DNA of 64,000 nucleotides from Patescibacteria group bacterium (GCA_041738615.1 JBGSPL010000002.1:10654-74653), one strand, 5' to 3'; positions 4,379-29,982 are shown, counted from the first letter of the stretch. The notes: generated from the sequence alone by a model not told the origin. Numbers and translations: made by a program.

Positions 4379-4650
4379 ACTGTGGATAAGCCTGTGCAGA
4401 ACCCCAGTATTCAGTGGAAAAGGTTGCGACAATAAAAAGTATAAATTATGCTCACTAAACATGGTCCAGAAAGTTAGAAACAGTTTTTGCAAGAACCTTA
4501 CCCCCTGTTGTACAGCCCCAAAACTGTAAGATGGTTACAAAGATAAGCACAAAAAGCGGCTTATACGCAGAATACACAGCCCCTATTACTACGATTACTA
4601 ATATATAAATAAGAAATTATATACACGAGCCTGTGGAAAGGGAAAACAAA
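4379..4650. promoter_or_regulatory. Candidate oriC (dnaA-dnaN intergenic): DnaA box plus AT-rich unwinding element
   Basis: Perfect TGTGGATAA at 4381-4389. A degenerate TGTGGAAAG lies at about 4614. An AT-rich stretch runs 4588-4620 (ttactaatatataaataagaaattatata). Confidence 0.5.
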
Positions 4651-5748: not shown

Positions 5749-5764
5749 GGGAATACAGCGGAAA

Positions 5765-6844: not shown

Positions 6845-7112
6845 CATTTTCAAAAATAGGTTGGACCAGCTCGGCATCGGCCGGCAAGTGGACGCTGCCG
6901 TTATTGTGGCACGGTCACAAAAGATCATTCATGACCATTTTGGAGCTCATGGTGATAACAATCTACGGGCTGTCTCTTACAGAAACGGCGTTTTAAAGAT
7001 AGCAAGTAGTTCAAGCGCATGGTCAGCGGAATGTCGCGGTGCTTTATTAGAAATACAAAAACCGCCTGTGACCCGAGTGGTATTTACTTTTGCTAACACA
7101 CCAGAGGAGTAG
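6834..7112 (+). CDS. dciA: DUF721/DciA-like protein (putative replicative helicase loader)
   Basis: Small ORF directly after recF, as Rv0004 is in the Mycobacterium dnaA-dnaN-recF-Rv0004 locus. Carries a SSSAWSAE motif typical of DUF721. Confidence 0.55.
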   Translation: MTNNIFKNRLDQLGIGRQVDAAVIVARSQKIIHDHFGAHGDNNLRAVSYRNGVLKIASSSSAWSAECRGALLEIQKPPVTRVVFTFANTPEE

Positions 7113-7460
7113 CTATTCGGTAGTTAGGTCAGGATCGGAGGAGTCGTCATAATCGGGTGCAAAAATAACCGTTACTTCGGTGGTTTGGTCTTTAGAAACC
7201 ACTACTGCTTGAGAAGAAGCGGCTGCATCACTATCTTTTGCCTTTGCGGTTAATCGGTATTCACCCGGCTTAAGGGTAATTTCTTTGGCTGAACTAAGTT
7301 CTTTGTCTTTGCCGTCTATTTGCACGGTTTGGATATCAGTTGGTGATGAAACCTTAATTTTGCCCGTTGGGTTTAAGACAACCCAAATAAACGTACCGAT
7401 AATAATCAGCAGTGTTAGGGAGCTAAAAACAGCTATTTGTATAAGGGTTTTTCTATTCAT
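7113..7460 (-). CDS. Small membrane-anchored hypothetical protein (distal gene of the T4SS locus)
   Basis: N-terminal TM helix, then a soluble Ser/Asp-rich domain. Confidence 0.35.
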   Translation of the reverse strand: MNRKTLIQIAVFSSLTLLIIIGTFIWVVLNPTGKIKVSSPTDIQTVQIDGKDKELSSAKEITLKPGEYRLTAKAKDSDAAASSQAVVVSKDQTTEVTVIFAPDYDDSSDPDLTTE

Positions 7461-10158: not shown

Positions 10159-10228
10159 ATTCTTATTCCGTTAGGAAAATCGGTTTTATGTAGTTTACTG
10201 TCAGCGTTTATTCTTGCTGTTAAATTAC

Positions 10229-11212
10229 TCACGGTTTTCCTCCGCCGAGCCTTAGAAGTTTACCGACATAGCTGTCTCCGGAAAAATAAACAACCCCACT
10301 ATCGCTTAGCCCAAATAGCTTGTAGTAATCGATATTATTAACCCCATAGTTTATTTGGTATGTTGTGCTGTCCTTAGCTAGATAAATATAGTCTTTCTTG
10401 TATTGTGAATAGATAAAGCAGTTTGCACCCGCGGCGAACTGGTCGGAGGGAGTAATATTAATTTTCGAGGGCGCGTGATTAGCAGGGAAAAGTCTGATTG
10501 AACTACTGTCGGCATATATTAGGCCACCGTTATCAAATATTCTGATGCGGCTTGACTCAGCAAACTTTTGTTCCAGTACCCTTATTGTTTTCAGCTTTTC
10601 ATCATATATCGTGACTTTCCCATTGATGTAATCTGCGAAACTTCCTCCAGCAGTCGAAAGTATGGGGGGATTGCTTGATAATTTAGTGCCAGTCTTTTTC
10701 CACTGGTCTCCTGTATGTTGGTATACGTAGTTAGTGCCCAGGCTTAGTATTTGGCTACCGGTTAGCCACGTGAATCCGGGCGCAGAACCTAAAAATATTG
10801 GGAGGTTGTCACCTAGATTATATGTCGCGTAAACCATTGTAGTTTCGGGGTCCTTGTAGTTACTATATCCCTCCAGTGCGGCTGGATCATTAACAATCTC
10901 TAGCAGCACCTTCTGCTTGTCTGGGTACCAGTATAAGTTAGAAATCTCTCCGTTAATAACTTGCTCGCTAATATCTTTCGCGGTCGTTTCTCCATTATCT
11001 ATCTTAGCGAGTGCAGTGTTGCGGAAAGTCATAAATGAGACATCATTGTCCGAGATATTTATGTGTTCCATCTGACCTTCAAGTGAGGTGAGATCTATCT
11101 CGGACGTTACGGTTTGGAGCGGGGCCGTTTTGGTAGAAACCAGATAAGTCATGATAATAACAACGATAATTAATATGGTACTGATAATTGGAATAATAAT
11201 CTTTTTGTTCAT
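10229..11212 (-). CDS. Membrane-anchored T4SS component (VirB8/TcpC-like by size and position; unverified)
   Basis: Single N-terminal TM plus a ~290 aa beta-rich ectodomain. Its ATGA start/stop overlaps the upstream gene. Confidence 0.3.
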   Translation of the reverse strand: MNKKIIIPIISTILIIVVIIMTYLVSTKTAPLQTVTSEIDLTSLEGQMEHINISDNDVSFMTFRNTALAKIDNGETTAKDISEQVINGEISNLYWYPDKQKVLLEIVNDPAALEGYSNYKDPETTMVYATYNLGDNLPIFLGSAPGFTWLTGSQILSLGTNYVYQHTGDQWKKTGTKLSSNPPILSTAGGSFADYINGKVTIYDEKLKTIRVLEQKFAESSRIRIFDNGGLIYADSSSIRLFPANHAPSKINITPSDQFAAGANCFIYSQYKKDYIYLAKDSTTYQINYGVNNIDYYKLFGLSDSGVVYFSGDSYVGKLLRLGGGKP

Positions 11213-11835
11213 CTGATTACAGTTCCTTCTATCTTGCCCATGACCTTTGACCCGCCATTCAAGCCGCTGCCGCTGTCTAGTTTAAGTTTGTGTTTTTTCC
11301 AGTAGGCTACCATCTCCGGGCAATAATCCACACAGGCAAGGTCAAGTCGGTTCGGTTTGGTTACAGTGGAAGCAAAGTGGTCCCCTACAGGGGTCGCTTC
11401 GCTGTTATTGTAGCCGGGAATAATTATCTTGGCTTGCTTTAGGACTTTTTTGCTATGGATCAGTGGTACAGGAATCTTGTTTATATCAACATGCCCGCCA
11501 GAATGATACTTACTATCTTGGGGGACAGCTATAACACCAGTTGAGACCTTTTTGCCGTTGTACTTACCGATATATCCCGTGGGGCTTGACGAGTTTAGCC
11601 AAACTTTAAGCATAGACCCGCCGCCGTTGTGACCGTTGATACCCCCTTTGCCAGGGTCATAAGTAGTTATCCAAAACTCAACGTCACCGGTAATGGCTGC
11701 AGTATCCGTTTTGTCTTCCACCTCTCCTCCCCCGCCCATTAACCCGACCGTTAGGGCAACGATAAATATTATAAAGACGCTTGAGGCAAAACAGCCCCCC
11801 AGCGTGCAGCCTACCTGTGATTTCCCTCCTGCCAC
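11209..11835 (-). CDS. 3D-domain (MltA/RlpA-like) putative lytic transglycosylase, membrane-anchored
   Basis: N-terminal TM. TTYDPGKGGINGHNGGG...GVIAVPQD...RLDLAC resembles 3D-domain motifs. Weak, by-eye match. Confidence 0.35.
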   Translation of the reverse strand: MAGGKSQVGCTLGGCFASSVFIIFIVALTVGLMGGGGEVEDKTDTAAITGDVEFWITTYDPGKGGINGHNGGGSMLKVWLNSSSPTGYIGKYNGKKVSTGVIAVPQDSKYHSGGHVDINKIPVPLIHSKKVLKQAKIIIPGYNNSEATPVGDHFASTVTKPNRLDLACVDYCPEMVAYWKKHKLKLDSGSGLNGGSKVMGKIEGTVIR

Positions 11836-11838
11836 GTG

Positions 11839-13650
11839 TTATTTTCTCCCGAGTTCGTTCAGCTGTTCTGGGTTTGTGGTAATTAGCAGATCTTCCTGGT
11901 AGCTTGGAGTGACCTTCAGGGCGACATGATTTAGTCCGGCGAAGAAGAGCCCCTCTCCTTTATCTGCGTTCAGAAGAAAGTACTTTTCAGCCGTGGTTAG
12001 ATTGAAGACCCTAGAGATGATATCCGCAGTGGCCGGGTGCTGCTTGAGCAGCAAGGTCAGTGACGAGTTGTTCACAATCGCCCTTCCGTAGCTAGAGCTG
12101 ATAAACTCGTCAACATCCTGGCTGATAGTCGTAAGGCCGAGGTAATATTTACGAGCCCGCTTCGCAATAGAGTAGATAAACTGGGCAGAGTCTTCATATT
12201 TCATCATCAGCCACGCTTCGTCCACGATGAGCATGCGGCGTTTGCGTTCGCTCTTCACGCGGTTCCAGATAAAGTTTAGGATAATGTGCATTGCGATAGG
12301 TCGGAGCTCATCCTCAAGGTCGCGGATAGAAAAGACGATAAACTGATTATCCATCTTGATGTTAGACTGTTGATTGAAGAGCCCCGAGAAGGTACCTGTG
12401 GTGTATTTCTGCATTCTGATAGCCATGGTCTCTCCGCCCTGGATACTGCCAAGAATCTTCTCTAGGTCCCCCATGGTCGGAGGCGTAAGGCCGTGAGTCG
12501 ACGGGTCACTAGTGATACCACGCGAGGCATATGATTCGATAAGCGCACGGTCTAGGATATTGTCTTCTACGGCTGTCAGAGTGCCACCAAGCATGATACG
12601 CACGAGCCCGTGGATAAGTATTACGTTGCTTCGCAAGATGTCTTCACCGTCCTTGGAGCCGCTTGCGGATGTAGGCAAGTCAAATGGGTTTATGCGGTAG
12701 TCGGAGTTCAGGGAGACATTCAGATAACTTCCGGCTACTGATTCGCAGAGCGCCTCGTACTCGTTTTCTGGGTCAATGATGATGACTTCGGTGCCAAACA
12801 TCATAGAGCGCACCGCCTCTAGCTTGATAGCGTAACTTTTACCTGCACCAGACATAGCCAGTACTACCATGTTGGCATTTTCTAGAGTAAAGCGGTCAAA
12901 TAGAACCAAGCTGTTGTTGTGCCTGTTGATGCCGTAGAGCACGCCTTCGTTATTTGAAAGCTCGGAGGAAACAAATGGGAAGCTAGTAGAGAGAGCACCA
13001 GTGTCGAAGTTACGCGAGATATCCATGACATCGTTTCCGAGTGGAAGCCCAGAGTCAAAACAGTCCTCTTGCTGCAGAGTGGCCCTCTTGGTATATACCA
13101 GCATTCCGCCCAGGTTCGTCTCGAGCATGTCGGTAAGCTGGTCCAGCTCCTTCAGCGTTTTTGCATAGAGGTTGATGTATAGAGACATCTTGAAGAACTT
13201 CGATTCGCCGCGTTGCAGTAAATCGCGTAGTTCCTCTACGTCCTGGTAGGCCGTCTGAAGCATAGGATCGCGCACGGCGCCTTTTTCTTGTTGCTCGGAG
13301 TAAGTAGACTGGATTTGTCCTACCTTTGTCCTTAGCTTGTCCATGATCTCCTTATTGTCTATCGGGTAGATAAACATCGAGAGATCGCCTTCGAAGCTTC
13401 CATTGATGATTGGTGAGAGCCACTCGGTATATAGATAGCGAGGATATGTGTAGACAAAGAATGATCGAGCGTAGTAGCCGCCTATTTCTATGTGGTCGAG
13501 CTCCACGTTGATGCTGGAGGGCGCGATGATGTCACGCAGAGTGGCCATACCTTCACGATAGACGCGCTCTGCCTCGAGCTTGCGGGCTTCGTTTGCCTCC
13601 CTGGCCTGCTTTTCCGCTGCAGACTTGGGGTCAAAGATATTATCAAGCAT
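11839..13650 (-). CDS. virB4: VirB4/TraE-family T4SS ATPase, C-terminal ATPase part
   Basis: Walker A LAMSGAGKSY and Walker B MLIVDEAWLM. The likely start is the ATG at 13648-13650 with an AAGGAG SD, overlapping the stop of the upstream ORF. Confidence 0.85.
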   Translation of the reverse strand: MLDNIFDPKSAAEKQAREANEARKLEAERVYREGMATLRDIIAPSSINVELDHIEIGGYYARSFFVYTYPRYLYTEWLSPIINGSFEGDLSMFIYPIDNKEIMDKLRTKVGQIQSTYSEQQEKGAVRDPMLQTAYQDVEELRDLLQRGESKFFKMSLYINLYAKTLKELDQLTDMLETNLGGMLVYTKRATLQQEDCFDSGLPLGNDVMDISRNFDTGALSTSFPFVSSELSNNEGVLYGINRHNNSLVLFDRFTLENANMVVLAMSGAGKSYAIKLEAVRSMMFGTEVIIIDPENEYEALCESVAGSYLNVSLNSDYRINPFDLPTSASGSKDGEDILRSNVILIHGLVRIMLGGTLTAVEDNILDRALIESYASRGITSDPSTHGLTPPTMGDLEKILGSIQGGETMAIRMQKYTTGTFSGLFNQQSNIKMDNQFIVFSIRDLEDELRPIAMHIILNFIWNRVKSERKRRMLIVDEAWLMMKYEDSAQFIYSIAKRARKYYLGLTTISQDVDEFISSSYGRAIVNNSSLTLLLKQHPATADIISRVFNLTTAEKYFLLNADKGEGLFFAGLNHVALKVTPSYQEDLLITTNPEQLNELGRK

Positions 13651-14380
13651 TTTCTTCTCCTTCGGGATTGGCTGGATTTGGACCGATACCACCAGAGATA
13701 ATCTCCGCTTCAGATCCAGAAATGTCAGTGAGTTTCTCAGAGCTAGAAATGTCAGGGTTGTATATGGAGTAGTACAGCTCTATCAGCTCCTCGGTGTTCA
13801 GCGCTGCACATCGAACCCCGATGCCAGTAAGCCCGTTTATAATATGGTCTACGCGTTCTAGGAGCTCCATCTTCTGCGTTCCAAAGTCAACCGTAGCCAC
13901 GCCTTCTTTCCCTGAGAAAAGATTCTTTACTACGTTCACTTTCTCCGTCCCAGTGGGGTAGAAAGGAACCACCAGAAAGAAGCGTTTCTCCATAATGTTG
14001 GAAAACTGGAGAAGTTCAGCGATAAAGTCGATGTACTGAGTGGTTTGCAATTTCAAAAGCTCATTCGTCTGTAGGCTCAGCTGTTTCTCCAGAGAGTTTA
14101 CATAGGCATCTAGGTGAAGCTGTCGTGATTTTACGTATACCTGTATTGGAAAGCCGAGGGAATTCAGGAAGCTCTGGTACGAGGAAACTATCGCGTTCTT
14201 TTCATCATCGCTCTTTAGGGCAAAGTTTACAGAGGAAACCAAAAGTACGGCCCTCAAAGAACCGTTGCGCATCACGACTACACCTTCTTTGATTTCCTTG
14301 ATCGGAATAAATTGCTGAGTAGACGGTGCCTTTACCTTCTTGTTGTACTTTGTGTCAGACATAACCCTCGCTTCGTACAC
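13643..14380 (-). CDS. VirB4 N-terminal domain encoded as a separate ORF
   Basis: FIPIKEIKEGVVVMRNGSLRAVLLVSSVNFALKSDDEKNAIVSSYQSFLNSL matches the N-terminus of Gram-positive VirB4 proteins (Tn916 Orf16/PrgJ type). Ends in low complexity. Confidence 0.65.
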   Translation of the reverse strand: MYEARVMSDTKYNKKVKAPSTQQFIPIKEIKEGVVVMRNGSLRAVLLVSSVNFALKSDDEKNAIVSSYQSFLNSLGFPIQVYVKSRQLHLDAYVNSLEKQLSLQTNELLKLQTTQYIDFIAELLQFSNIMEKRFFLVVPFYPTGTEKVNVVKNLFSGKEGVATVDFGTQKMELLERVDHIINGLTGIGVRCAALNTEELIELYYSIYNPDISSSEKLTDISGSEAEIISGGIGPNPANPEGEENA

Positions 14381-14446: not shown

Positions 14447-15202
14447 TTACCCCCTGTCAAATTTCTTGACCTTAGCACTATCGAGCTTTTCCTCTAGTAC
14501 TCGCTGGTTTTCTTGAATTTTATTCAGTGTGGATTCTAGCTTCTTTTCGTCTGCGAGCGAGAGCTTCGAGTATTCAAAGTCGTCCTTGTTGGTTTTCTTT
14601 GTTGCTAGCGTACTTACTGGGGTTTCCTTCTTGTTTTTTTCGACATACTCTTTCGCCTGAGAGATGATAGAGTCCATCATCGGAGCGGCTTCCTCGGTTT
14701 TTGCTAGAACGTCCTTGACTGCCTCGGGCTCCTCTACTTCTTTCACTTCTACGTTAGTCTGCCGGTTCACTGTAGAGTCCATCCCTGCGGCACCACCTGA
14801 GTCCACGACCATGGCTAGCCTCTCGAGACCACTCTTGATCTCGTGAATACTTTTCTTTGCAGCCACGGTTTTTCTAGTATGCGGTGTCTCGTCATGGGTG
14901 GGGATTTCGGGATCGTCGTCCTTGCGCCAAATTCGTTCATGGGGCGCAAACAGGGATTTGACACCGGCCATGATAAAGGTCTCAAACGGACGGTCGTTTA
15001 TTTTCACAAAGGCAAATGCGATACCAACGCATGCTGTTACAAGTGCGAATGGGATAAAGAGGAATTGCAAAGGTCCAACGAAGGCATAGAACTCCAGGAG
15101 TCCCACGCCACCAGCGACCATGACGAACATGAACTGTCTGAGCGTAAGCCCGGCAATTACCTTGTCTTCGATGTCTATGTTTTGGGGGACTTTATATTGC
15201 AT
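14447..15202 (-). CDS. PrgI/VirB3-like small membrane protein with a charged C-terminal extension
   Basis: N-terminal IDIEDKVIAGLTLRQFMF plus a two-TM hairpin typifies the PrgI family. Lies directly upstream of VirB4. Confidence 0.5.
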   Translation of the reverse strand: MQYKVPQNIDIEDKVIAGLTLRQFMFVMVAGGVGLLEFYAFVGPLQFLFIPFALVTACVGIAFAFVKINDRPFETFIMAGVKSLFAPHERIWRKDDDPEIPTHDETPHTRKTVAAKKSIHEIKSGLERLAMVVDSGGAAGMDSTVNRQTNVEVKEVEEPEAVKDVLAKTEEAAPMMDSIISQAKEYVEKNKKETPVSTLATKKTNKDDFEYSKLSLADEKKLESTLNKIQENQRVLEEKLDSAKVKKFDRG

Positions 15203-15220: not shown

Positions 15221-18058
15221 TTATTTCTGTCGTTTCTTTCCTTCCATTATATCCTTGATCTCTGCTACGGTGTCAGGTCTAAAGTTAGTAGCTCCAATCT
15301 CTGGATCTGTGGCGGCTTTGTACAGCTTGGTCATACGAGGAGCACCTTTTTTCTTTATCAGTTCGCTAGCCTGGAGGGGCGAAATATTAGAAGTGAACTC
15401 ATTTGCCAAGCCAGCCATGAGAACGTCTTGATCGCCTCCTGCTATGCTCCTGGTATCTAGCCCCCCATTTTTAATCTGATCGTTTTGGGCATCAACTTGG
15501 CCTCTCAGTTCTTTGGTTATTGGTTTGGCATAGTTTAATAGTCCACCAATTTCTGCCCCAGTAGATGCTGAAAGATCTCCATCTATCATCTTCTTTGCGG
15601 CCTTCCTTCTGAAGTCGGCAGTGACAGAATCGTTTTGACTACCAAAAATAAGTTCCTTGTGACTCTTGATGCCAAGGTTCTTCATGGCGTCACTCTTACC
15701 GATAAACTCATCAAATAGTCCCTGTGCACCCTGCTCGTTACCGTCTTTGTCAAGTACTGTGTTACCACCAAAGCGCTTCAATTCATTGGCATCCATGTCG
15801 AGTAGCCCTCGGCGCATTAGTTCTGTTGCCGCAGCCTCACGCGTATATTGGTCATGCTGTTTTCCTGTAAAAGACATAAGTTTTTCTTTTGAGGTACTTT
15901 CGTCGCCCATACCTGCGGCAGCATGGTGGGCTGCCACAGTTGCTACGTGGAGGTTATTTGCGGCCATTTGCCCTCTATTGCCGGCGACTCCTGTTGTGGC
16001 CCACGTAGAACCCGGGATGTTACTATTCGCGAGCTTATCCTGGAAGCCGAGCAGGTGGGCCTTGTCCTCTGCGGCTTGGTTCGCTCTTCTGTTTTCGAAA
16101 AAGCCCTTACCCTTACCAAGCATACGATTGACGGAGTACTTCCCTCCCACGCGGGTAGCTGCCCAGCCGGCACCTTTCAGGGCATTCCCCCCCGTAGCGC
16201 CCCAGAGTTTCTTGCCTGCGCCACTCCAGGATTTCATAATGCTGCCACCCCATTGCATAGGGAGAGTGGCAGCCATATATAGAGCAGCCGCAAAGATGAT
16301 TAGTCCTACCAAAGCACCCGTTCTGCCGGAAGAGCTGAAATCAGCAAGGGCAGCAGACGAGGTGAGGTCACTTGCTCCTTCATAACCGGCGCTGCTAGCT
16401 ATTAAGCCTCCGAGAGCAATGATTGCCATAGCGATCGGCCCCATGAACATCCACTTGAAGAATTCACTCCACCACTGCTTATACATATTGGCGGTGAATG
16501 GCATGATGTTTAGGATAAAGGCAAGCGGAGCTACTACTAGCAGGAAGCTAAGCATGACCATACGTATCAGAAGAGTAAAGAGTAGTACGATGCCACATGC
16601 GATGACTCCGAGCAGAATCACGATTACCATAATCAGTATGCCAAGGTTTGCTATAATGTCCCCCGTAGAGGGTGCGGATATGCTGAAGGAAGACAAAGTC
16701 CCTAGAATGTCTATGCCCCCAGCGAGACCTACGGCCTGGGCTTGTATCGCAGCGGTAAAGTCAAAAAAAAAGACTACGATAATCCAGCTAGCGTATGCCA
16801 TGACTATAGAAATGATGATACGGGGGATCATACGAGTAACGCCGTACTGCTCTAGGTTAATTTGCAGTACATTGGCAAAGGCAATAATAACGAGTGCCAT
16901 CACTAGCAGGGATAGTGCTACGTTCCTTACGCTGATCCATGGCCCCCGCATAGTTACCTCTTTGGCATTCCCGATATCTGCACCGACCTTGCCAACAACA
17001 AGGTCTGCAGTCCCAAGAAGCAAGGCATTGATTTGTTTCATGACAAACCCCAGGGTCGTTTCGACGCCGCTCATCACCCACTTGATAGCGTTGGAGATAG
17101 CCTTGTCTAGGGGGGAGTCAGTTTCTTGGGAAACAGTTATCCGAAACCCTGTGTACTTTTCGTCGGTATCAGGCAGTTGCTTACCGCCAATTGGAGATTT
17201 TGCCTCAGTGGTATCATTCTTGTCGGAAATTGTTACTTTTGCGTAGCCACCCTTTACGTAACTCAAGTGAAATGTTATTTCCCCAGTCAGAGTTGCAGTA
17301 CAGGAGATTTGGTCAGCTCCTCCACCCTTCATTTCTTTAGAGACGCAGTCGGCATGTTCAGAATATTTAAACTTTATCGTATAGTCGTCCTCGTAGATGC
17401 CTTTACCGCTGTTCATGGTTGGGATATCAAAAGACTGGAAATAGTATTTTCCACCTTCTTCATATACTTTCTTATTGCCAGTCGAGATCTTACCGCTCGT
17501 TTTGCTCCAAAGCTCGATCGTCCTGTCCTTCATTTGGACGGCATTGTTTTCGTTTACGCTGTCGTCAGGGATAAGCTGTCCTGTTATTTTGCCCTTTGTA
17601 ATAAGTTTTACTGGGGCCGACGCAACATCTTCGGGGTCGGAGATGGTAATTTTAACTGGCCTGCCGCCATTGCGATCTGTGTAAGTATAGGTACCGGTCA
17701 AGGGGTCCTCTGGGTCATATGCAATTATGGACCCCCATTGAGGGTTGGTTTTTTGTTCAAACTGCTCCACTAGCTGTTCATTAACATAACCATTTGAGCC
17801 GGCATTTGCCCAACCCTGGCTTAGAGCAGCGAGGCGCGGGCTTGTTATCGACAAAAACTTCGTGCCGCCACTAGGGCAATCAATTTCTTCTAGGCTGACC
17901 CAAACACAAGTAAAGCTTGATGAGCCGTCTGGAATCGCTGGTTCTTGCCCGGTGTTGTAAGTTTGAGCATGAGTAAAAAGCGGAAATACTAACGCAAACA
18001 ACAAAAAAGCACATATTTCTTTATAAAATACTGGCTTATTTGAAAACAACTTAGGCAC
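15221..18058 (-). CDS. VirB6/PrgH/TcpH-like polytopic T4SS channel protein (945 aa)
   Basis: Signal peptide, ~350 aa ectodomain, then 6 or more TM helices and a Gly/Ala-rich cytoplasmic tail. Position matches the Gram-positive T4SS gene order. Confidence 0.55.
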   Translation of the reverse strand: MPKLFSNKPVFYKEICAFLLFALVFPLFTHAQTYNTGQEPAIPDGSSSFTCVWVSLEEIDCPSGGTKFLSITSPRLAALSQGWANAGSNGYVNEQLVEQFEQKTNPQWGSIIAYDPEDPLTGTYTYTDRNGGRPVKITISDPEDVASAPVKLITKGKITGQLIPDDSVNENNAVQMKDRTIELWSKTSGKISTGNKKVYEEGGKYYFQSFDIPTMNSGKGIYEDDYTIKFKYSEHADCVSKEMKGGGADQISCTATLTGEITFHLSYVKGGYAKVTISDKNDTTEAKSPIGGKQLPDTDEKYTGFRITVSQETDSPLDKAISNAIKWVMSGVETTLGFVMKQINALLLGTADLVVGKVGADIGNAKEVTMRGPWISVRNVALSLLVMALVIIAFANVLQINLEQYGVTRMIPRIIISIVMAYASWIIVVFFFDFTAAIQAQAVGLAGGIDILGTLSSFSISAPSTGDIIANLGILIMVIVILLGVIACGIVLLFTLLIRMVMLSFLLVVAPLAFILNIMPFTANMYKQWWSEFFKWMFMGPIAMAIIALGGLIASSAGYEGASDLTSSAALADFSSSGRTGALVGLIIFAAALYMAATLPMQWGGSIMKSWSGAGKKLWGATGGNALKGAGWAATRVGGKYSVNRMLGKGKGFFENRRANQAAEDKAHLLGFQDKLANSNIPGSTWATTGVAGNRGQMAANNLHVATVAAHHAAAGMGDESTSKEKLMSFTGKQHDQYTREAAATELMRRGLLDMDANELKRFGGNTVLDKDGNEQGAQGLFDEFIGKSDAMKNLGIKSHKELIFGSQNDSVTADFRRKAAKKMIDGDLSASTGAEIGGLLNYAKPITKELRGQVDAQNDQIKNGGLDTRSIAGGDQDVLMAGLANEFTSNISPLQASELIKKKGAPRMTKLYKAATDPEIGATNFRPDTVAEIKDIMEGKKRQK

Positions 18059-18171: not shown

Positions 18172-18618
18172 TTACTCGAGTATCTCTACCCATTTACCAT
18201 CGCGCTTTACGAGTGCCGAGATGCCGTGAGTCCCGTCAGCGCCGCTCCACTTGTAGACAGCCGTCGGTTCGTTGTCGACGGTGACGGTAATGCAGCGGAC
18301 CATGTCATCGGCGACCTGCTCGGCGAAACCGCCGGTGTAGAAGAAGTCCTGGATGTCGGTATCGGTCGCAGGGCGGAATTCCACGATTTCTGCGGTTGTG
18401 AATTCATGGATCTTCTGCCGTGCAAAAGGCTCGGCTTCTCGCAACAAAGCCTGCCTGTCGAGGGACTTCTTCGCCTCAGCGGCTTTGTTAGCACCAGCCT
18501 CGATTGCCTGGTTTGCCGTTTCTCCCGCTGGCTTCACGACTTCCTTGTAAAGGTAGGTCCCGAAGCCAAGTATGACGACTATGCCCACGAGGTAGACGAA
18601 CCACTTCGGGATCGCCAT
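18172..18618 (-). CDS. Hypothetical TM-anchored protein encoded in a ~60% GC islet inside the T4SS locus
   Basis: Probable start MAIPKWFVYLVGIVVILGF (TM helix) followed by a soluble domain. The plus-strand ORF 18154..18708 is judged a high-GC antisense artefact. Confidence 0.4.
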   Translation of the reverse strand: MAIPKWFVYLVGIVVILGFGTYLYKEVVKPAGETANQAIEAGANKAAEAKKSLDRQALLREAEPFARQKIHEFTTAEIVEFRPATDTDIQDFFYTGGFAEQVADDMVRCITVTVDNEPTAVYKWSGADGTHGISALVKRDGKWVEILE

Positions 18619-18837
18619 GGTTCCTCTGTGCTGGCTACCCGCAGGGCTTCCGTTCAAGTCGACCATGACAGCCTCCCTTGGTTTTGGCCCCCGCGGGGGC
18701 GGTGCTAGCGGACAATATACTTCCACGGCTACACATTTGTGAGCGCGTTGTTGCCTTGCTTGCCGCTATAATACAACAAAATTGGCGATATGGCAATGGT
18801 TTCTGTGAAGCCGGCAAACAAATTGATAAAATGAAAA

Positions 18838-18857
18838 AGCCGGCGAGCGCCGGCTTT
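18838..18857. terminator. Hairpin terminator after pilin gene 1 (minus) / bidirectional
   Basis: AAGCCGGC gagc GCCGGCTT, with TTTTTCATTTT on the minus strand. Confidence 0.55.
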
Positions 18858-18873: not shown

Positions 18874-19227
18874 TTAGTTAGTGATTACGCCACCTATGTT
18901 CTGGCGGATAAATCCAACGATGACGAACGATAGTAGGATCACTACAAGCCCGACGACTGCGTAAAGGATGGTACTCTTTGCGGCTTCGGCACGCTTCTCG
19001 TTGCCTGACGCAGTGATGTACTGTAGGCCGCCTACAATCAGGAAGAGCACAGCTACTACAGCCGAGAATCCTAGTACCCATCCGACGATGTCAGCAAGTA
19101 CCTTCCCGATAGTCAGTGAGCTGTCGTCCACTGTTATGGGAGTGATTGAGCTTGGTGTTTCTGCAAAGGCAGGGGTTGCTGCGAGTAGAGCGAAAGCAGC
19201 CAGGCTGATTTGATTTAGTTTTTTCAT
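18874..19227 (-). CDS. VirB2/TrbC-like T4SS pilin paralog 1
   Basis: Signal peptide plus two TM helices with a conserved GGLQYITASGNEKRAEAAKSTILYAVVGL core shared by all five paralogs. Confidence 0.7.
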   Translation of the reverse strand: MKKLNQISLAAFALLAATPAFAETPSSITPITVDDSSLTIGKVLADIVGWVLGFSAVVAVLFLIVGGLQYITASGNEKRAEAAKSTILYAVVGLVVILLSFVIVGFIRQNIGGVITN

Positions 19228-19255
19228 GTTTCCTCCGTTGTTTATATATTAACTT

Positions 19256-19642
19256 TTAGGACGCTTTTGTTATTGGTATCATGGCTTGAACTACTAGCTG
19301 CACTATCACATATGCTAGTAGTATTACTATAAGTCCCAGCACTGCGTAGGTCAAGGTTTGCTTGGCAGATTCTGCCTGCTTCTCGTTTCCTGCTGCTGTG
19401 ATGTACTGGATGCCGCCCCAAATGATGAAAAGAACTGCAATGGTTCCAGCAAATCCTAGTATCCAGGTTGTAATGTTGCTGATTATTTTGGCAAGGTCGG
19501 ACGTAGTTCCAGTCCCATCTGAGCCACAGGGTGTGATCTCACCGGTTACCCTGTTATACCCACATGCCGCCTGTGTTACTACTGGAGTAAGTGAAGTGAC
19601 ACCCCCGAGGGCAAGTAGCGACAATTTAGAGTTTAGTGACAT
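19256..19642 (-). CDS. VirB2/TrbC-like pilin paralog 2
   Basis: Core GGIQYITAAGNEKQAESAKQTLTYAVLGL. Confidence 0.7.
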   Translation of the reverse strand: MSLNSKLSLLALGGVTSLTPVVTQAACGYNRVTGEITPCGSDGTGTTSDLAKIISNITTWILGFAGTIAVLFIIWGGIQYITAAGNEKQAESAKQTLTYAVLGLIVILLAYVIVQLVVQAMIPITKAS

Positions 19643-19662
19643 GGTTTGTACCTCCTTATTGT

Positions 19663-20007
19663 TTAGTATGGCATCGAGCCGGAGAATACTGCACCAACAA
19701 AATCCCCAGCTATAATGTTTAATATTACGGTTGATAGTAGAACTGCAATTAATCCAATAATAGCATAAGTGAGGGTTTTTTTTGCATCCTCTAAACGTTT
19801 GGGGTTACCGGCAGAAGTCACTAGCTTCACGCCACCAATAACGATAAAGAGCACCGCTATAGCGCCGGCGATTCCCAGCAGCCAGGTACGAACAAATTTT
19901 AGAAATCCATCTAGGCTAGTGCCTTTGTATGTGTCTAGTTTGGCCGCGAAAGAGTAGCTGGGCATGGCTGCAACCGCAATATATAGCATTAGACTTAGCT
20001 TCTTCAT
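19663..20007 (-). CDS. VirB2/TrbC-like pilin paralog 3
   Basis: Core GGVKLVTSAGNPKRLEDAKKTLTYAIIGL. Confidence 0.7.
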   Translation of the reverse strand: MKKLSLMLYIAVAAMPSYSFAAKLDTYKGTSLDGFLKFVRTWLLGIAGAIAVLFIVIGGVKLVTSAGNPKRLEDAKKTLTYAIIGLIAVLLSTVILNIIAGDFVGAVFSGSMPY

Positions 20008-21182
20008 TATAATATCCCTCCACCAATTACCGATGCAAACAGTGAGACGATGAAGTACGAGAGGATAGTGATGAGTAATCCGATAATAGCTGCAGTTAGT
20101 ATCCCCTTTGCCTTGGTCGCCGTCTGTTCGTTTCCGTTAGATCCCATATAGGTAATCCCGCCCAAGATTATCATGATTGTGAATAGTGTTCCTACGATGG
20201 GTAGGAGGACATTATTCATAACATTCTTCACTACCTGTAATACCTCTTTCAGCTCTGTAATAGGTTTGTCGCAGGGTACGCCTGCCAGTATACCGTTGGT
20301 ATAGTAGGTTCCATCGCCTACGCCATCGCCGCACTTGGTCTCTGCATAGTCTGCAGTTTGCGTTTTTGCAGTAGCACTAGCAGAGGCCGGTCCGGAGTCG
20401 TCTTTGGGTGTGGCACCGCTACTACCGCCACTGTCACCACCATCACCACTGTCATCTTTGCCCGCATCAAGAACCTCACTGTCTTTTGGAGGAGTGTCGC
20501 CCTTTTTGCAGGATACTAGCTCTGGATTACTGAGGGTTCCAGTGTATTTGCAGCTATAGGTCGCACCAATGTCGGTGGACTTGGGGTCCCAAGCATAGTT
20601 TGAGTTAGAAAGACTTCTTCCCAGTAAAAGTGAACTTCCAGATGAAGGATTTACCCTATAAACCGTGGTCCCGGTGGAGGAATACTTCTCTAGCTTACCT
20701 TTGACTGGTCCCTTAACCTCTGGGATTGGGCAGACTGCGCAAGTACCCCCTCCCGATTTACTCCAGCTGTACACAACAAGATATCGTAAGCTCAGCTTGA
20801 AGGTTGGATTGCCACAGATAGTCTGATTAGTATATTGTTTTTGGCCTGTAGTACGAGCGTTGCCACCCAAGGACCCATTGGCTTCATAGGTAATCGTCCA
20901 TCCCACATCATTGATCTCAGGACTGTTACAGCGGTAGATTTTTTTTGTAAAGATAAAATACGACCCCTCTGTACGAGAATATATCGCACCATAGGATACG
21001 TTGCTCTTCGTTATCTTTACGACAACGTCACTTGAATTGTAACTATTTACAGGCACTTTAACAGTAACAGTGGTTTGTGTCATGACGGCGGCATTGCTTG
21101 AGCTTGGAGCCAAAATAAAACAAAACGCAATTGCAAAGTACAGCAAGATACGGTTTAGTTTTGCGTACTTTAATTCACCCAT
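20007..21182 (-). CDS. Pilin-fusion protein: ~300 aa Cys-containing beta-rich N-terminal domain, Gly/Ser/Asp linker, C-terminal VirB2-like pilin module
   Basis: C-terminus GGITYMGSNGNEQTATKAKGILTAAIIGL matches the pilin core. The N-terminal domain has a signal peptide and several Cys. Confidence 0.6.
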   Translation of the reverse strand: MGELKYAKLNRILLYFAIAFCFILAPSSSNAAVMTQTTVTVKVPVNSYNSSDVVVKITKSNVSYGAIYSRTEGSYFIFTKKIYRCNSPEINDVGWTITYEANGSLGGNARTTGQKQYTNQTICGNPTFKLSLRYLVVYSWSKSGGGTCAVCPIPEVKGPVKGKLEKYSSTGTTVYRVNPSSGSSLLLGRSLSNSNYAWDPKSTDIGATYSCKYTGTLSNPELVSCKKGDTPPKDSEVLDAGKDDSGDGGDSGGSSGATPKDDSGPASASATAKTQTADYAETKCGDGVGDGTYYTNGILAGVPCDKPITELKEVLQVVKNVMNNVLLPIVGTLFTIMIILGGITYMGSNGNEQTATKAKGILTAAIIGLLITILSYFIVSLFASVIGGGIL

Positions 21183-21547
21183 GGTACCCCCACCACATAT
21201 TGTAAAAAGAATCTACCGAGAACTATGACCGCTACTCCCGAAAGGGCTCCAAACATCAACTTCTTCGAAAGCTCTATCTGCTTACTATTACCCGCACTGC
21301 CCATATATATAATACCGGCCGCAATGAGAACTACGGTAGCGAGGAGCAAGATGGCGGTCTGTGACCAGCTAAAAACTTTTGCGATGTAGGCTGTAAGAGC
21401 CTCGTTGTCATCGGGTTTAAGGCTCTTGAAAAGTCTGAATTCTACAGTTTCTGCGAATGCGAAGTGAGGAGACAGGAGAAGAAGCAACCCGCAGGTTGTG
21501 CTGGCAAGCTTTGTGCATCTGAGTGTGGCCAGGAGTTTTCTAACCAT
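21170..21547 (-). CDS. VirB2/TrbC-like pilin paralog 5
   Basis: Core AGIIYMGSAGNSKQIELSKKLMFGALSGV. Confidence 0.6.
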   Translation of the reverse strand: MVRKLLATLRCTKLASTTCGLLLLLSPHFAFAETVEFRLFKSLKPDDNEALTAYIAKVFSWSQTAILLLATVVLIAAGIIYMGSAGNSKQIELSKKLMFGALSGVAVIVLGRFFLQYVVGVPWVN

Positions 21548-21557
21548 AATTCCTCGT

Positions 21558-22019
21558 TTAGCTTACTTTGAGCTTACGTAGCTTGTTTGTCTCGGCTTTT
21601 GGCACGCGGATAGTTAGGATGCCCTTGGAAAAATCAGCCCTTGCCTCGTCAGCGAGCCCCTTCTTTGGCAATGTAATTGTACGAGAGAAAGACCCCCAGT
21701 AGCACTCTTGTGCGTGGTAAGAGCCTAGGTCTACCTCTTTGATTTCCTTGCGTTCGCCCCGGATGATGACAATCTCGTCGGTAACCGTGATGTCGATGTC
21801 GTCTCCGCCCACTCCAGCAATTGGGGCTTTGATCACGACGTCCTTAACCGTTTCATAGACATCAACGGCCAGCTGCCCGTCAAGTGCTGGCTCTTCGGGT
21901 GCCTCTACCAGGGGGCCTTCCAGCCAATCTTCGGTCAGTATATTATCCTCGAGAAAAAAGCTCTCCTCTGTAACTGGGCTTGGAGCTGTTTTTACCTTTG
22001 GTTTTGGCATCATCATCAT
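21558..22019 (-). CDS. Small heat-shock protein, Hsp20/alpha-crystallin family
   Basis: ACD domain (GILTIRVPKAE C-terminal signature). Start at ATGATGATGATG with a GGAGGGG SD; the annotated longer ORF is an N-terminal over-extension. Confidence 0.85.
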   Translation of the reverse strand: MMMMPKPKVKTAPSPVTEESFFLEDNILTEDWLEGPLVEAPEEPALDGQLAVDVYETVKDVVIKAPIAGVGGDDIDITVTDEIVIIRGERKEIKEVDLGSYHAQECYWGSFSRTITLPKKGLADEARADFSKGILTIRVPKAETNKLRKLKVS

Positions 22020-22133
22020 TATGTCCCCTCCCTTAGTGTATTTGTTAAATCTATTGTGCCACGGGTAAATAATAATAGCAATAGGCAAAATATCCGTAAA
22101 AGCCAACTTTTGAGCACGAATTAGTTCAAAACT

Positions 22134-22220
22134 ATGCGGCCGCACAAGAATAGACTGGATGCGATATGTTGTAATGTTTGGATATTTAGCCACGAACCGC
22201 TCATTTGTATGCGGCCGCAT
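22134..22220. promoter_or_regulatory. Two copies of the palindrome ATGCGGCCGCA(T/C) in the Hsp20 / regulator divergent promoter region
   Basis: Copies at 22134-22145 and 22209-22220. The second overlaps the putative -35 of the regulator gene. Confidence 0.5.
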
Positions 22221-22278
22221 ATTATTAGACATTTACATTATCTGGGTATACTATAGTAGCAAGCTTGGGAGGGTGTTT

Positions 22279-22839
22279 ATGGTCAGCTCGCGTACAAAGG
22301 GTCGGATTCTGACCCGTATGATACTTATGACTCTAGCAGAAGCCGGCGGAGGCCTGGTGGAGTCATTTCTCGATCCTTACGGGAGGACTAGGTTTGCGAA
22401 CCAGTTTATCGAGAAAGGCAAGATTGATCGGATGCGCATGCGCAAGAAACTACTGGCCCTGGAAAAACAGGGTTTGCTTACGGTAAGGGAAAAGAAGAAC
22501 GAGATTACAATCTCCCTAGAGGCAGCAGGATTACTGCAGGCCCATAAATACAAGATCGAAGATATGAAGCTAGCGCGTCCTGACCACTGGGATCGCAAAT
22601 GGCGTATGGTTCTCTTTGACGTTCCGGAGGAAAGCCGTTCGGTGCGTAATATCTTCAAGAAGAAGCTCGACGATTTGGCCTTTGTGCAACTTCAACATAG
22701 CGTTTACGTACACCCTTACGCTTGCCATAACGAGATCGAATACATTCGTACGGCTTATGATATAAAACAATATGTGAAGATGGTAATCGTCGACAAGATA
22801 GAGGGCGATACCGTGCTCCGTAAGCACTTCGATTTATAA
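22279..22839 (+). CDS. Winged-helix transcriptional regulator with a Cas2/PaaX-C-like C-terminal domain (PaaX-like)
   Basis: N-terminal wHTH-like region (ILTRMILMTLAEAGGG...LEKQGLL). C-terminal block WRMVLFDVPEESRSVRNIFKKKLDDLAFVQLQHSVYV. GGGAGGG SD. Confidence 0.4.
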   Translation: MVSSRTKGRILTRMILMTLAEAGGGLVESFLDPYGRTRFANQFIEKGKIDRMRMRKKLLALEKQGLLTVREKKNEITISLEAAGLLQAHKYKIEDMKLARPDHWDRKWRMVLFDVPEESRSVRNIFKKKLDDLAFVQLQHSVYVHPYACHNEIEYIRTAYDIKQYVKMVIVDKIEGDTVLRKHFDL

Positions 22840-24636: not shown

Positions 24637-26256
24637 TTATTCCCTAACCACCCTTAGCACCTCACCGATGGTAGTTTCACCAGCGATGGCCTTTAGGATA
24701 CCATCCTGCTCCATGGTGGCAAACCCTAGCGAACCAGCAGCTTCGCGAAGTTCGTAGATCGAGGCGCGATCGTTAATGAGTTTTTGTAAGTCACCAGTCA
24801 TCTCGAGGACCTCGAAGATGCCAACGCGGCCTTTGAACCCTATGTGCTGGCAGCTCGGGCACCCGGCACCCTTGTAAAAGTGGACCTCGCTCGTAGGGCG
24901 TAGCTGAGCAGGCAGCTTGGCGGAAATTTTGTTGTACTCGCTAAACTCGAAATCACTCGGCTGATACTCTTCTTTGCAGTCTGGACAGATTTTACGTACC
25001 AGACGCTGAGCAATGATAATGTTGGTACTCGCTGTAATAAGAGTGGGATCGCCAATCATGTCATAGAGACGAGTGATGGCAGTGATGGCGTCGTTGGCAT
25101 GCAGAGTGGAAATCAGAAGGTGCCCGGTAAGTGCCGCCTGGATAGCAGTTTCTGCAGTACTGGCTTCGCGGATTTCACCAACCATGATGATGTCTGGGTC
25201 CTCACGGAGTACGGCTTTGAGCCTGTCGGCAAACGATTCCCCGTCATTAATCTGTGATTGTGTAGTTCCAGGCATCTCGTATTCGACCGGATCCTCAAGG
25301 GTGATGATTTTGACGTCCTCGGTGTTTAGAATGTTCAATATGGAATAGATGGTGGTAGTTTTACCAGCCCCTGTAGGTCCAACTACCAAAATCATGCCGT
25401 GAGGACGAGAAATAGCATTACGTACCGCCGGGAGGTCATGGTCAGAAAAACCGAGCTGTTCGATGTGAAGGGTCTGCGATTGAGTATTGAAAAGACGAAT
25501 TACGATGTCGTCGCCGTGAAGGGAAGGCATGGTTTCGATACGAACTCCGAGGTCGCGATCTTCGAATTTGATGGAGAAGCGTCCACCCTGAGGATAGGGG
25601 GCATTTAGCTTGATGTTTGCGTTTAGCTCTACCTGGGAGAGGACATAACCATACTTGTCAGCATCGAGTGTCGCAATCTCGTGTAGGGTGCCATCTAGGC
25701 GATAGCGAATGCGAGCATAGCCATCTCTTGGCTCCACATGAATGTCGGATGCACCGGCCTTGAAGGCGACTACTAGAATCATCTTTAGTAGATCCTGGAT
25801 AGGTGCTTTTTGTAGTTTGGTCGCAAGCTCTTCGAAGCTGGTGATATCCTCCATCTTTGTCAGGTCTATTCGCTCGTCATCAAGGTTGGTAGGTGCCATC
25901 TTGGTAATCTCGTTGTATTTAGGGAGCCAATCTAGGTAGGAAGGCTCGGAGATGAGGGCAATTGGCACCTCGCGAATGCCGTAATTCTTCTTCATGCCCT
26001 CGAATAGAAGCGAAAAGTCTTTCTCGGGATCAACGATGCCGATATATAGTTTTCTCTGCTCACTTTTTAACGGTATTGCCTTATATTTGATAACTTCATC
26101 ACGCGAGAGGAACTCCAGTACTTCCTTGGGGATAGAGGATTGGCGCAAATCTGCATAACCAATACCAAGTTGCGAAGCACGCGATCTCGTATCGGCTTCC
26201 TGACCATTTCGGTAAAGGTCGGTAGCTACATCATTAATTTGCTTCTTGTCCGCCAA
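24637..26256 (-). CDS. pilB: Type IV pilus assembly ATPase PilB (GspE family)
   Basis: T2SSE_N-type N-terminal domain; Walker A GPTGAGKTTT; tetracysteine motif CPDC...CPSC. Confidence 0.85.
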   Translation of the reverse strand: MADKKQINDVATDLYRNGQEADTRSRASQLGIGYADLRQSSIPKEVLEFLSRDEVIKYKAIPLKSEQRKLYIGIVDPEKDFSLLFEGMKKNYGIREVPIALISEPSYLDWLPKYNEITKMAPTNLDDERIDLTKMEDITSFEELATKLQKAPIQDLLKMILVVAFKAGASDIHVEPRDGYARIRYRLDGTLHEIATLDADKYGYVLSQVELNANIKLNAPYPQGGRFSIKFEDRDLGVRIETMPSLHGDDIVIRLFNTQSQTLHIEQLGFSDHDLPAVRNAISRPHGMILVVGPTGAGKTTTIYSILNILNTEDVKIITLEDPVEYEMPGTTQSQINDGESFADRLKAVLREDPDIIMVGEIREASTAETAIQAALTGHLLISTLHANDAITAITRLYDMIGDPTLITASTNIIIAQRLVRKICPDCKEEYQPSDFEFSEYNKISAKLPAQLRPTSEVHFYKGAGCPSCQHIGFKGRVGIFEVLEMTGDLQKLINDRASIYELREAAGSLGFATMEQDGILKAIAGETTIGEVLRVVRE

Positions 26257-29220: not shown

Positions 29221-29982
29221 TTATCGTAGAGTTCCACCCCATACCTGCCAAGCAAGAAGCGCCTTGGCAACTAGTGAGAAGGTGATGTAAGCGTACTCAC
29301 CGTAGAGGTAATCCTGCCATTTACCAATCTTTTTGTATTGAAGAATCATATTTACCGAGAAGACGTTGAAGGCGATAAAAAGGCTCCAAAAGATTGCGTA
29401 GACAAAGTTAGGGACAGCATCTCCACCGGCGGCAAGGGCATTATAGAAATATAGTCCCATCACTACCCATGGCATCGCCCCGGCAAAACAACCGAAAAGA
29501 TACGCAGTCCAGTCGGTCTTCTTGGTGGTTTGGTTGTGGACTTCCATCATCCAGCCAAAGAGAATCATGCAGGCATTTAGTGAGAAGATCAGAATTAAGG
29601 TAGATAAATCGTAGATACCACAAAGTATGGCAATCACCACGACCATCATCGAAGATGTGATAGCATACTCTGCCCAGCGAAATAGATTGATGCCCTTCTG
29701 AATCTGCTCTTCGTACTTTTTGCGCCATACGAAAGCATTACCGAGTAGAAATAGCCCAGAAAGCAGTAGAAATGAAGCCACGATAGGACCGAGGCGCCAC
29801 TGCGCAAAATTCGCGACTAGGGTGGTTGGCATTCCTGGAATATTACTGTTCTTGCCTAGGTAGCTAGTAGTAATTTGTGCGGCGCTGTCGTTTGAAATCG
29901 CCCACATTAGCACACCCTGTGCAAACAGTAGTACTCCGACTACAGAATTGTAGATCCAGAGATTATTTAGTTTCTTTTCCAT
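29221..29982 (-). CDS. Heliorhodopsin (seven-TM retinal protein, inverted topology)
   Basis: As recalled (not searched), extensive identity to heliorhodopsin 48C12. Examples: NLFRWAEYAITSSMMVVVIAILCGI, NACMILFGW, FGCFAGAMPW. The Schiff-base lysine sits in YAYITFSLVAKALLAWQVWGGTL. Confidence 0.85.
   Translation of the reverse strand: MEKKLNNLWIYNSVVGVLLFAQGVLMWAISNDSAAQITTSYLGKNSNIPGMPTTLVANFAQWRLGPIVASFLLLSGLFLLGNAFVWRKKYEEQIQKGINLFRWAEYAITSSMMVVVIAILCGIYDLSTLILIFSLNACMILFGWMMEVHNQTTKKTDWTAYLFGCFAGAMPWVVMGLYFYNALAAGGDAVPNFVYAIFWSLFIAFNVFSVNMILQYKKIGKWQDYLYGEYAYITFSLVAKALLAWQVWGGTLR

Follow-up and report, generated by a model that had tools for sequence, protein, structure and literature searches.

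A tandem array of five VirB2-like pilin genes, one with a variable N-terminal head, in the type IV secretion locus of a Patescibacteria genome

A 64,000-nucleotide stretch of DNA from a Patescibacteria group bacterium (GCA_041738615.1, JBGSPL010000002.1:10654-74653; hereafter the window) contains five tandem genes that are almost certainly the VirB2-like pilin set of a type IV secretion system (T4SS). The second of them in the direction of transcription, pil2, encodes a fusion of a hypervariable N-terminal domain (the N-domain, or head) with a pilin module. The explanation that we favour, with a probability of about 0.55, is a five-part T4SS pilin set in which the head of pil2 is displayed to the host. 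The array itself has already been published in kind and is not a discovery; to judge from the searchable literature, the head-bearing pilin has not been described before. The closest relatives of the window are metagenome-assembled genomes of Saccharibacteria, and the farther ones are other Patescibacteria; from these relatives, the window is assigned to a Saccharibacterium.

The five open reading frames (ORFs) are co-oriented, lie head-to-tail on the minus strand and span 18874-21547, with the coordinates given by the first-pass annotation of this DNA (the gene which it called the fourth follows plus-strand order and is, by transcription, the second, pil2). The genes and the signals around them are as follows (aa, amino acids; nt, nucleotides):

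21547-21170, minus strand: pil1, VirB2-like pilin of 125 aa that has diverged most among the paralogues and has a conserved GVPW motif at its C-terminus
21182-20007, minus strand: pil2, fusion pilin of 391 aa
20007-19663, minus strand: pil3, pilin of 114 aa
19642-19256, minus strand: pil4, pilin of 128 aa with an N-terminal Cys...Cys loop
19227-18874, minus strand: pil5, pilin of 117 aa, across genomes the most conserved of the five
18836-18857, minus strand: intrinsic-terminator-like hairpin directly 3' of pil5, its 9-bp stem (6 GC pairs) leading into a T-rich tail
18768-18796, minus strand: promoter-like site ahead of the machinery genes, TTGCCA-17-TATTAT (10 of 12 matches; consensus match only)
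22072-22100, minus strand: promoter-like site upstream of an Hsp20 gene, TTTACG-17-TATTAT with TG (9 of 12 matches; consensus match only)

The pilin genes form a compact unit with overlaps or close spacing, individual ribosome-binding sites and a terminator-like end. The start of pil2 overlaps the stop of pil1 by 13 nt, and the stop of pil2 overlaps the start of pil3 in TAATG. Each gene encodes a signal peptide with an AxA-type end and has its own Shine-Dalgarno-like motif, the strongest being AAGGAGG before pil4, with GGAGG before pil5. From the sequence of the site at 22072-22100, it is possible that a transcript comprising Hsp20 and the pilins begins there. The sequence GGTGGAGGG (20010-20030, minus strand) codes for the conserved C-terminal GGG(I/V) of pil2 and doubles as the Shine-Dalgarno motif of pil3.

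The signal peptide and two-helix pilin module that had been noticed in five consecutive genes were seen in all five ORFs and in the alignment of their modules. Each protein ends in two long hydrophobic helices, so that the signal peptide and two-helix hairpin characteristic of PF18895 (T4SS_pilin) are present throughout, and the five C-terminal modules share two hydrophobic blocks and the invariant residues G78, G86, N87, K95, A101, G104 and L110 (pil1 numbering). The core proposed in the first-pass annotation, GG(I/L)xY(I/M)(T/G)(A/S)xGN(E/P/S)(K/Q), occurs exactly in pil2, pil4 and pil5 and was slightly over-specified for the other two: pil1 starts with AG and pil3 reads GGVKLVTSAGNPK (GGVKLV...). 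PF18895 (curated cut-off 26.6 bits) was detected in pil4 (56.3 bits), pil3 (55.7), pil5 (46.8) and pil2 (31.3, residues 324-382) and reached 20.5 bits, below the cut-off, in pil1, with E-values over the array from 5e-4 to 3.5e-15, a likeness well outside what chance would give. PF04956 (TrbC, cut-off 27.9 bits) was passed by pil5 (29.8 bits) and pil3 (28.9), with pil4 (26.9) and pil2 (14.3) below it and no match to pil1 in the Pfam scan. The NCBIfam model NF045849 (cut-off 40 bits), named for the "pilin-like conjugal transfer protein" of Mycoplasma integrative and conjugative elements (ICEs), scored 42.2 bits in pil5 and 40.0 bits, exactly at the cut-off, in pil3, and remained below it in pil4 (37.6) and pil1 (17.5). 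Despite its sub-cut-off score for PF18895, we regard pil1 as a true paralogue, because the profile of its orthologues aligned with that of the pil3-5 orthologues in hhalign with a probability of 98.4% (E 5.5e-15). The assignment of the core to VirB2/TrbC-like pilins, and not to an unrelated family, is thus borne out by PF18895 (pil2-5), TrbC (pil3 and pil5), NF045849 and the T4SS neighbours described below. A sequence search of the PDB with the pilin profile found no solved pilin structures, only rhodopsin and transducer helices at chance level, so the tie to canonical VirB2 is a distant one; judged by sequence, the TrbC/VirB2 relationship of the array appears real but distant.

The fusion pilin pil2 consists of a signal peptide (residues 1-31), the N-domain (32-232), a linker (about 233-282), a Cys...Cys loop (283-304) and the two-helix module. 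Past the signal peptide, the parts are located as follows (L001 is the closest relative of the window; pLDDT, predicted local distance difference test):

20487-21089, minus strand: N-domain of pil2, residues 32-232, a predicted all-beta ectodomain with 6 of the 8 Cys of the protein, interpreted as a tandem pair of beta-sandwiches and hypervariable from genome to genome
20337-20486, minus strand: linker of pil2, about residues 233-282, low-complexity Gly/Ser/Asp/Pro, pLDDT below 50 in the full-length model
20010-20336, minus strand: Cys-Cys loop and module of pil2, C283...C304, YTNGILxGVPC, highly conserved in long pilins and 90% identical to L001

The first-pass annotation had described 20007-21182 as a Cys-containing, beta-rich ectodomain joined by a Gly/Ser/Asp linker to a pilin module, and this architecture was recovered, the ectodomain being all-beta in the model. 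The two helices of the module (H311-347 and H352-386) were modelled by AlphaFold2 (AF2) with pLDDT 65-73. A word-indexed search found seven long homologues of pil2 (286-404 aa) and an exhaustive search found further ones (354-441 aa), and all of them contain, in a single frame, a signal peptide, an N-domain, a Gly/Ser/Pro/Asp linker (the composition of which is kept across homologues but not its sequence), a TKC...YTxGILxGVPC loop and the pilin module. Long pilins at position 2 also recur in syntenic arrays of independent assemblies. That the 391-aa pil2 is an artefact of assembly or of a frameshift, a concern already raised in the first-pass annotation, was therefore rejected and is hardly credible: the ORF is continuous, and at least 10 independent homologues (286-441 aa) from different assemblies are read in one frame.

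The N-domain is rare. Among 1.84 billion representatives, the exhaustive search returned 9 proteins at E<=1e-3, and the six matches that aligned over their full length all have the pilin module at their end; with the N-domain alignment as a profile, two matches were obtained in a collection of 5.8 billion proteins. No strain-level relatives were found. No copy exists elsewhere in the window, including the ectodomain of the VirB6-like protein, and about 100 other loci yielded one full copy and a partial match in one further array (L027-L029). The N-domain has no match in Pfam or NCBIfam. Modelled alone with AF2 from a 7-sequence alignment, it was all-beta with a pLDDT of 82.9, and we read its predicted layout as two beta-sandwiches; the model of full-length pil2 (8-sequence alignment, pLDDT 40.8) was uninformative on the N-domain. 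Its fold matches were the fimbrial anchor Mfa2 (8.2), a putative adhesin of Bacteroides (7.9), transthyretin (7.8), CBM41 (7.8) and the tip subunit Mfa3 (7.6), and CBM26 was also among the nearest folds (CBM41 and CBM26 are carbohydrate-binding modules). The head was given no specific family because a Foldseek search against the PDB and viral models returned nothing at E<=1e-3. No VirB5-like structure was among the fold matches, and no VirB5/TraC homology was detected by Pfam, NCBIfam or the fold search. Adhesins, fimbrial subunits and carbohydrate-binding modules often have the fold class predicted by the model, yet this class is generic.

Comparison with L001 located the variation within the locus. 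Outside three islands, the collinear DNA is only 72-81% identical between the two, and the encoded proteins are well conserved: VirB4 98%, TrsD 97%, pil5 97%, Hsp20 95%, PrgI 92%, the pil2 module 90%, and residues 297-938 of the VirB6-like protein 85%. In BLASTP, residues 1-232 of pil2 had no match in L001 at E<=1e-3, and no L001 match was found for residues 1-296 of the VirB6-like protein, for a 208-aa ORF past its first 52 residues or for the whole of a 327-aa ORF. The three islands devoid of DNA similarity to L001 (21168-20447, 18670-17110 and 11743-10162) correspond, respectively, to the pil2 head, to a small protein together with the N-terminal approximately 300 aa of the VirB6-like protein, and to the two ORFs of no recognised family after VirB4. 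Nearly all variation of the locus is confined to these three exposed pieces, which may be co-varying surface parts. The modules that carry homologues of the head are only 43-61% identical to that of pil2, and the 90%-identical module of L001 bears an unrelated head; because the relatedness of heads and that of modules disagree, we read the pil2 head as having probably been replaced between genomes. In nine syntenic arrays, the pilins at positions 3-5 are always 113-151 aa long, with 106-251 aa at position 1 and 148-391 aa at position 2.

The paralogues themselves behave differently from what the first-pass annotation proposed, namely that multiple diverged copies of a major pilin could support antigenic or host-range variation. 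In nine syntenic five-gene arrays, the best cross-genome match of each of the 45 modules was found at the same array position (45 of 45), with median identities of 55-66% at the same position versus 40% between paralogues within a genome. Inside the window, the paralogues are 23-49% identical, orthologues of pil1 are 56-82% identical, and pil5 is 97% identical to L001 and 75% to a second relative, L002. No long shared DNA or recent gene-conversion tracts were detected between the paralogues of the window, the sole extended similarity being 137 nt at 70% between pil4 and pil5. The conserved groups of positional orthologues indicate that the copies predate the divergence of the genomes and are not a lineage-specific amplification; with these matches and no long shared tracts, the array differs from the recent within-lineage duplications of the Bartonella Trw type. 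The array is the counterpart of SEML1_0014-0019 in the epibiont Southlakia epibionticum ML1, six PF18895 proteins that were all scored essential and lie beside the Hsp20 gene SEML1_0020 (Wang et al. 2023, Cell, PMC10633639). Positional orthology, the lack of gene-conversion tracts and these essential counterparts argue for the five pilins as fixed, non-redundant parts rather than interchangeable variants, and the variation hypothesis is better redirected to the pil2 head than to the paralogue set. The idea that the five paralogues make up a heteropentameric layer of a five-start pilus was rejected, since array sizes vary from 2 to 11.

A hidden Markov model of the module, run on the ORFs of 108 fetched loci and the window, yielded 102 non-redundant arrays with 364 complete pilin genes, the starts of which were set by a simple signal-peptide rule. 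Most were plain (301 genes); 43, chiefly those at positions 1 and 2, have at least 130 residues before the module, 12 contain two modules and 8 have at least 100 residues after the module. The longest N-terminal extension was 1120 residues and the longest C-terminal one about 2000 residues, in ORFs running off locus ends. An N-extended pilin is present in 25 of the 59 arrays having at least four genes (at position 1 in 19 cases and at position 2 in 12), a frequency biased upward because the loci were retrieved by pil2-type patterns. An alignment-based scan of metagenomes gave 80 loci; the scan with the pil2 module alone gave no relatives. The 45 distinct heads fell into 33 BLAST clusters, one of which spans positions 1 and 2, so that heads move between positions. 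N-extended pilins thus recur at positions 1 and 2 across Patescibacteria with highly diverse heads. We consider it possible, though rather doubtful, that the VirB2-like pilins of Patescibacteria are modular, a conserved polymerising hairpin anchor carrying unrelated, swappable ectodomains mostly at positions 1 and 2, and that in Saccharibacteria the pil2 head is the main determinant of the host bacterium that can be used, together with the co-varying VirB6-like ectodomain and small flanking proteins.

Other arrangements of the module were noted in these loci. In P0016, a pil1-type module is joined to a head related to the pil2 head of the window, which points to an exchange of heads between pilin positions. 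First pilins of the pil1 type (GVPW end) with an N-terminal extension of 90-170 aa are encoded in some Saccharibacteria arrays, namely in L007 (5384-6022), L026 (720-1331), L030, L031 and L035. Double pilins, single ORFs of 211-245 aa with two tandem modules, occur in L012 (6242-6979), L019 (5812-6501), L022 (5917-6594) and L025 (5557-6192). The reverse of pil2, a signal peptide and pilin module followed by a very long C-terminal region (590 to about 2100 aa in total), was seen in L021, L023, L024 (about 4000-12100) and L052, which are other Patescibacteria loci, some of them labelled as Gammaproteobacteria or Paceibacter metagenome-assembled genomes.

In the explanation that we favour, pil1-pil5 would assemble into one filament or conduit as non-redundant parts. 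Because it is the most conserved across genomes, pil5 is the candidate major subunit, and it might, perhaps with pil4, form the shaft; the remaining pilins would be minor subunits or would initiate or cap the structure, an arrangement known from type IV pili and type II pseudopili. Solved VirB2-family pili have a lumen lined by the helix-helix loop and termini that point outward, and they grow from the base; on a subunit assembled early, an N-terminal head would thus end at the tip or on the surface. The most likely target of the displayed head would be a structure of the host bacterium's envelope, and turnover of the head, of the variable VirB6-like ectodomain and of the small neighbours could tune host specificity. 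For pil2 itself, a role as a tip or adhesin pilin, also suggested by the first-pass annotation, is plausible at somewhat below even odds. Several points weigh against this explanation. No pilus of this system has been seen, and the filament itself is an inference in the literature (PMC12857230). Only 7 sequences underlie the N-domain model, and full-length pil2 was modelled poorly (pLDDT 40.8). The differences between heads might be a consequence of very fast divergence instead of replacement, as synonymous divergence from L001 is already high and the DNA is 72-81% identical. The census, finally, carries the upward bias mentioned above.

If the pilins were instead interchangeable variants of a major subunit, serving antigenic variation or a wider host range as has been proposed for Bartonella Trw and for Anaplasma, their strong divergence (23-49% identity in the window) would fit, and such a role has been suggested for Patescibacteria arrays by Quinonero-Coronel et al. 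(PMC12102498). The 45 of 45 positional matches and the lack of gene-conversion tracts speak against it, however, as does the tight coupling of the genes in one unit, the operon signals of which give no sign of alternative expression; moreover, all six counterparts in S. epibionticum are scored essential, which would be unexpected under redundancy, and we regard interchangeable variants as improbable. There might also be no extracellular pilus at all, the pilins forming a short stalk or channel across the membrane or wall, with the head binding the cell's own wall or surface layer or acting as a spacer. Gram-positive-type T4SSs are generally without a pilus (PMC12102498), related pilin-like proteins are found in the ICEs of wall-less Mycoplasma (NF045849), the likeness of the head to carbohydrate-binding modules would suit binding to the wall, and a pilus has never been observed (PMC12857230). 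A binder of the cell's own wall should be conserved, however, and the head is entirely different in close relatives, its length across arrays going from zero to more than 1100 residues, a variability typical of parts facing another organism; a stalk of this kind is therefore unlikely in our judgement.

Secretion of the array proteins as T4SS effectors would agree with the Sec signal peptides on all five, and a transcriptome study of TM7x labels the equivalent array "putative effector genes". Their two long hydrophobic helices, which match pilin profiles, fit integration into the membrane and not soluble release, and the cytoplasm, not export by Sec, is the usual source of T4SS effectors, which makes this interpretation very improbable; it was rejected. 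The T4SS and the pilin array are essential for the epibiotic growth of Saccharibacteria. As to what decides which hosts Saccharibacteria and other ultrasmall epibionts live on, the head-bearing pilin offers a concrete handle, narrowing the general idea of pilin diversity to defined domains. If the head does bind the host, pil2 would be the first VirB2-family pilin known to us with a built-in adhesin domain.

The array is embedded in a T4SS locus with the gene order, along the coding strand, Hsp20, pil1-pil5, small protein, VirB6-like, PrgI, TrsD, VirB4, two ORFs of no recognised family and an amidase/endopeptidase; the order from Hsp20 through a long pil2 to VirB4 (Hsp20-pil1-long pil2-pil3-pil4-pil5-small protein-VirB6-like-PrgI-TrsD-VirB4) recurs in independent assemblies. 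The neighbours of the array are as follows:

21558-22019, minus strand: Hsp20, 10 nt upstream of pil1, PF00011 (E 4.2e-15), likely start M72 of a 224-aa ORF, with a AAGGGAGG motif before M72
18172-18618, minus strand: small membrane-anchored protein, likely start M37 of a 184-aa ORF, variable between genomes
15221-18058, minus strand: VirB6/TrbL-like polytopic membrane protein of 945 aa, the N-terminal ectodomain of which (about 300 aa) is variable, family assigned from its orthologues, which carry PF19590 (TrbL_3)
14447-15202, minus strand: PrgI (VirB3-like), PF12666 (E 6.3e-13)
13643-14380, minus strand: TrsD-like protein, a free-standing VirB4 N-terminal part of 245 aa, NCBIfam VirB4_plasma N-terminal region (E 6.4e-13), TrsD (E 7e-6)
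11839-13692, minus strand: VirB4 ATPase of 617 aa, PF19044 (P-loop_TraG, E 4.2e-29), 98% identical to L001
10229-11835, minus strand: two ORFs of no recognised family (208 and 327 aa), without Pfam or NCBIfam matches, in the third variable island
7453-10158, minus strand: cell-wall hydrolase of 901 aa, a functional analogue of VirB1, PF01520 (Amidase_3, E 6.4e-24) and PF03411 (Peptidase_M74, E 1e-5)

The array lies about 5 kb from virB4, and dnaA (3008-4378), dnaN and recF are located within 3008-6844. The ORFs of the TrsD-like protein and VirB4 overlap by 50 nt; the same split is found in L001 and L026 and is typical of Patescibacteria (PMC12102498), so it is not a frameshift error. Relatives have a gene of 147-179 aa at the position of the small protein, which has no match in Pfam or NCBIfam and none by BLASTP in L001 or L002. 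Relaxase and coupling-protein families did not turn up among the 28 window ORFs scanned, in which no search aimed at relaxases was made. Orthologues of the Hsp20 (152-155 aa) adjoin the array in L001, L002 and L026, as does SEML1_0020 in S. epibionticum. All Saccharibacteria loci that were examined have an Hsp20 gene next to the pilins, and SEML1_0020 is essential; the protein could be a pilin chaperone. The ORF divergent from Hsp20 (22159-22839, plus strand), in which a PaaX central Cas2-like domain was recognised (E 4e-21), keeps its position in L001 to L004; its product could regulate the adjoining genes. About 3 kb from the pilin array, a PilB/GspE-type ATPase (T2SSE, E 5e-113; 24637-26256, minus strand) indicates that a component of a type IV pilus or type II secretion system is encoded near the T4SS. 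A heliorhodopsin (PF18761, E 2.3e-87; 29221-29982, minus strand) is encoded near a rubrerythrin, in the same relative position as in L002.

Arrays of this kind are known from the literature. In Saccharibacteria, 4-6 VirB2-like proteins with signal peptides in an array were noted in 2018 (McLean 2018; bioRxiv 10.1101/258137), and 441 VirB2 arrays of Patescibacteria, with 2-11 pilin genes of about 25% mean and 54% maximum identity, were later described, together with their position near dnaA and adaptation to host strains as a possible role (Quinonero-Coronel et al. 2025, PMC12102498). According to a 2025 review, Patescibacteria have the only Gram-positive-type T4SSs with VirB2-like pilins (PMC12857230). 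The window agrees with these descriptions, with its five tandem genes of 23-49% mutual identity near virB4 and a chromosomal MPF-FATA-like set near dnaA in which VirB4, TrsD, PrgI and the VirB6-like protein are all present. No mention of N-extended pilins or of head turnover was found in the published array papers or in further literature searches. The array SEML1_0014-0019 of S. epibionticum ML1 resembles that of the window in its PF18895 proteins, in its neighbours (Hsp20, VirB6-like, PrgI, TrsD and VirB4 near dnaA), in its similarly diverged paralogues and in its second pilin gene, the extended one, which runs into the start of the third. It differs in having six genes versus five and in being inverted, whereas the array of the window is co-oriented with the machinery. 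In SEML1_0015 (185 aa), the pilin module occupies residues 115-180 (Wang et al. 2023, PMC10633639), and the head of about 200 aa plus the 50-aa linker of the second pilin of the window are roughly three times the extension in ML1.

Like the VirB2/TrbC/TraA conjugative pilins (PF04956), the array proteins are small and Sec-exported, with a two-helix hydrophobic hairpin at the end and genes beside VirB4 and VirB6. Unlike those pilins of Gram-negative T4SSs, they belong to a Gram-positive-type machine of monoderm cells and comprise five distinct paralogues versus one major pilin; a large N-terminal ectodomain is not known to us from any canonical VirB2. The Mbov_0395-family pilin-like proteins of Mycoplasma ICEs (NF045849) are related, in that pil5 and pil3 reach the cut-off of their model and the VirB4 N-terminal part of the window also best matches a Mycoplasma ICE model, but they are single genes on mobile elements, whereas the window contains a chromosomal multi-gene array. 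The amplified VirB2/VirB5 genes of Bartonella Trw (trwL and trwJ) and the VirB2 paralogues of Anaplasma likewise comprise tandem VirB2-like copies in T4SSs of host interaction, for which surface variation has been proposed (PMC12102498); those copies are regarded as lineage-specific amplifications of variants, whereas the pilins of the window are ancient positional orthologues in which the variable part is one appended domain. As the main host determinant, the pil2 head would resemble phage receptor-binding proteins, which set host range. VirB5 at the tips of T-pili, PilY1 with the minor pilins of type IV pili, and Mfa2/Mfa3 of type V fimbriae share with the proposed pilin set the logic of a conserved polymerising module, to which are added a small number of subunits in low copy that initiate or cap the structure and bear a binding domain. 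In sequence, the pil2 head is not homologous to VirB5, PilY1 or the Mfa proteins, and its generic beta-sandwich likeness is a mechanistic analogy and not a sign of family membership.

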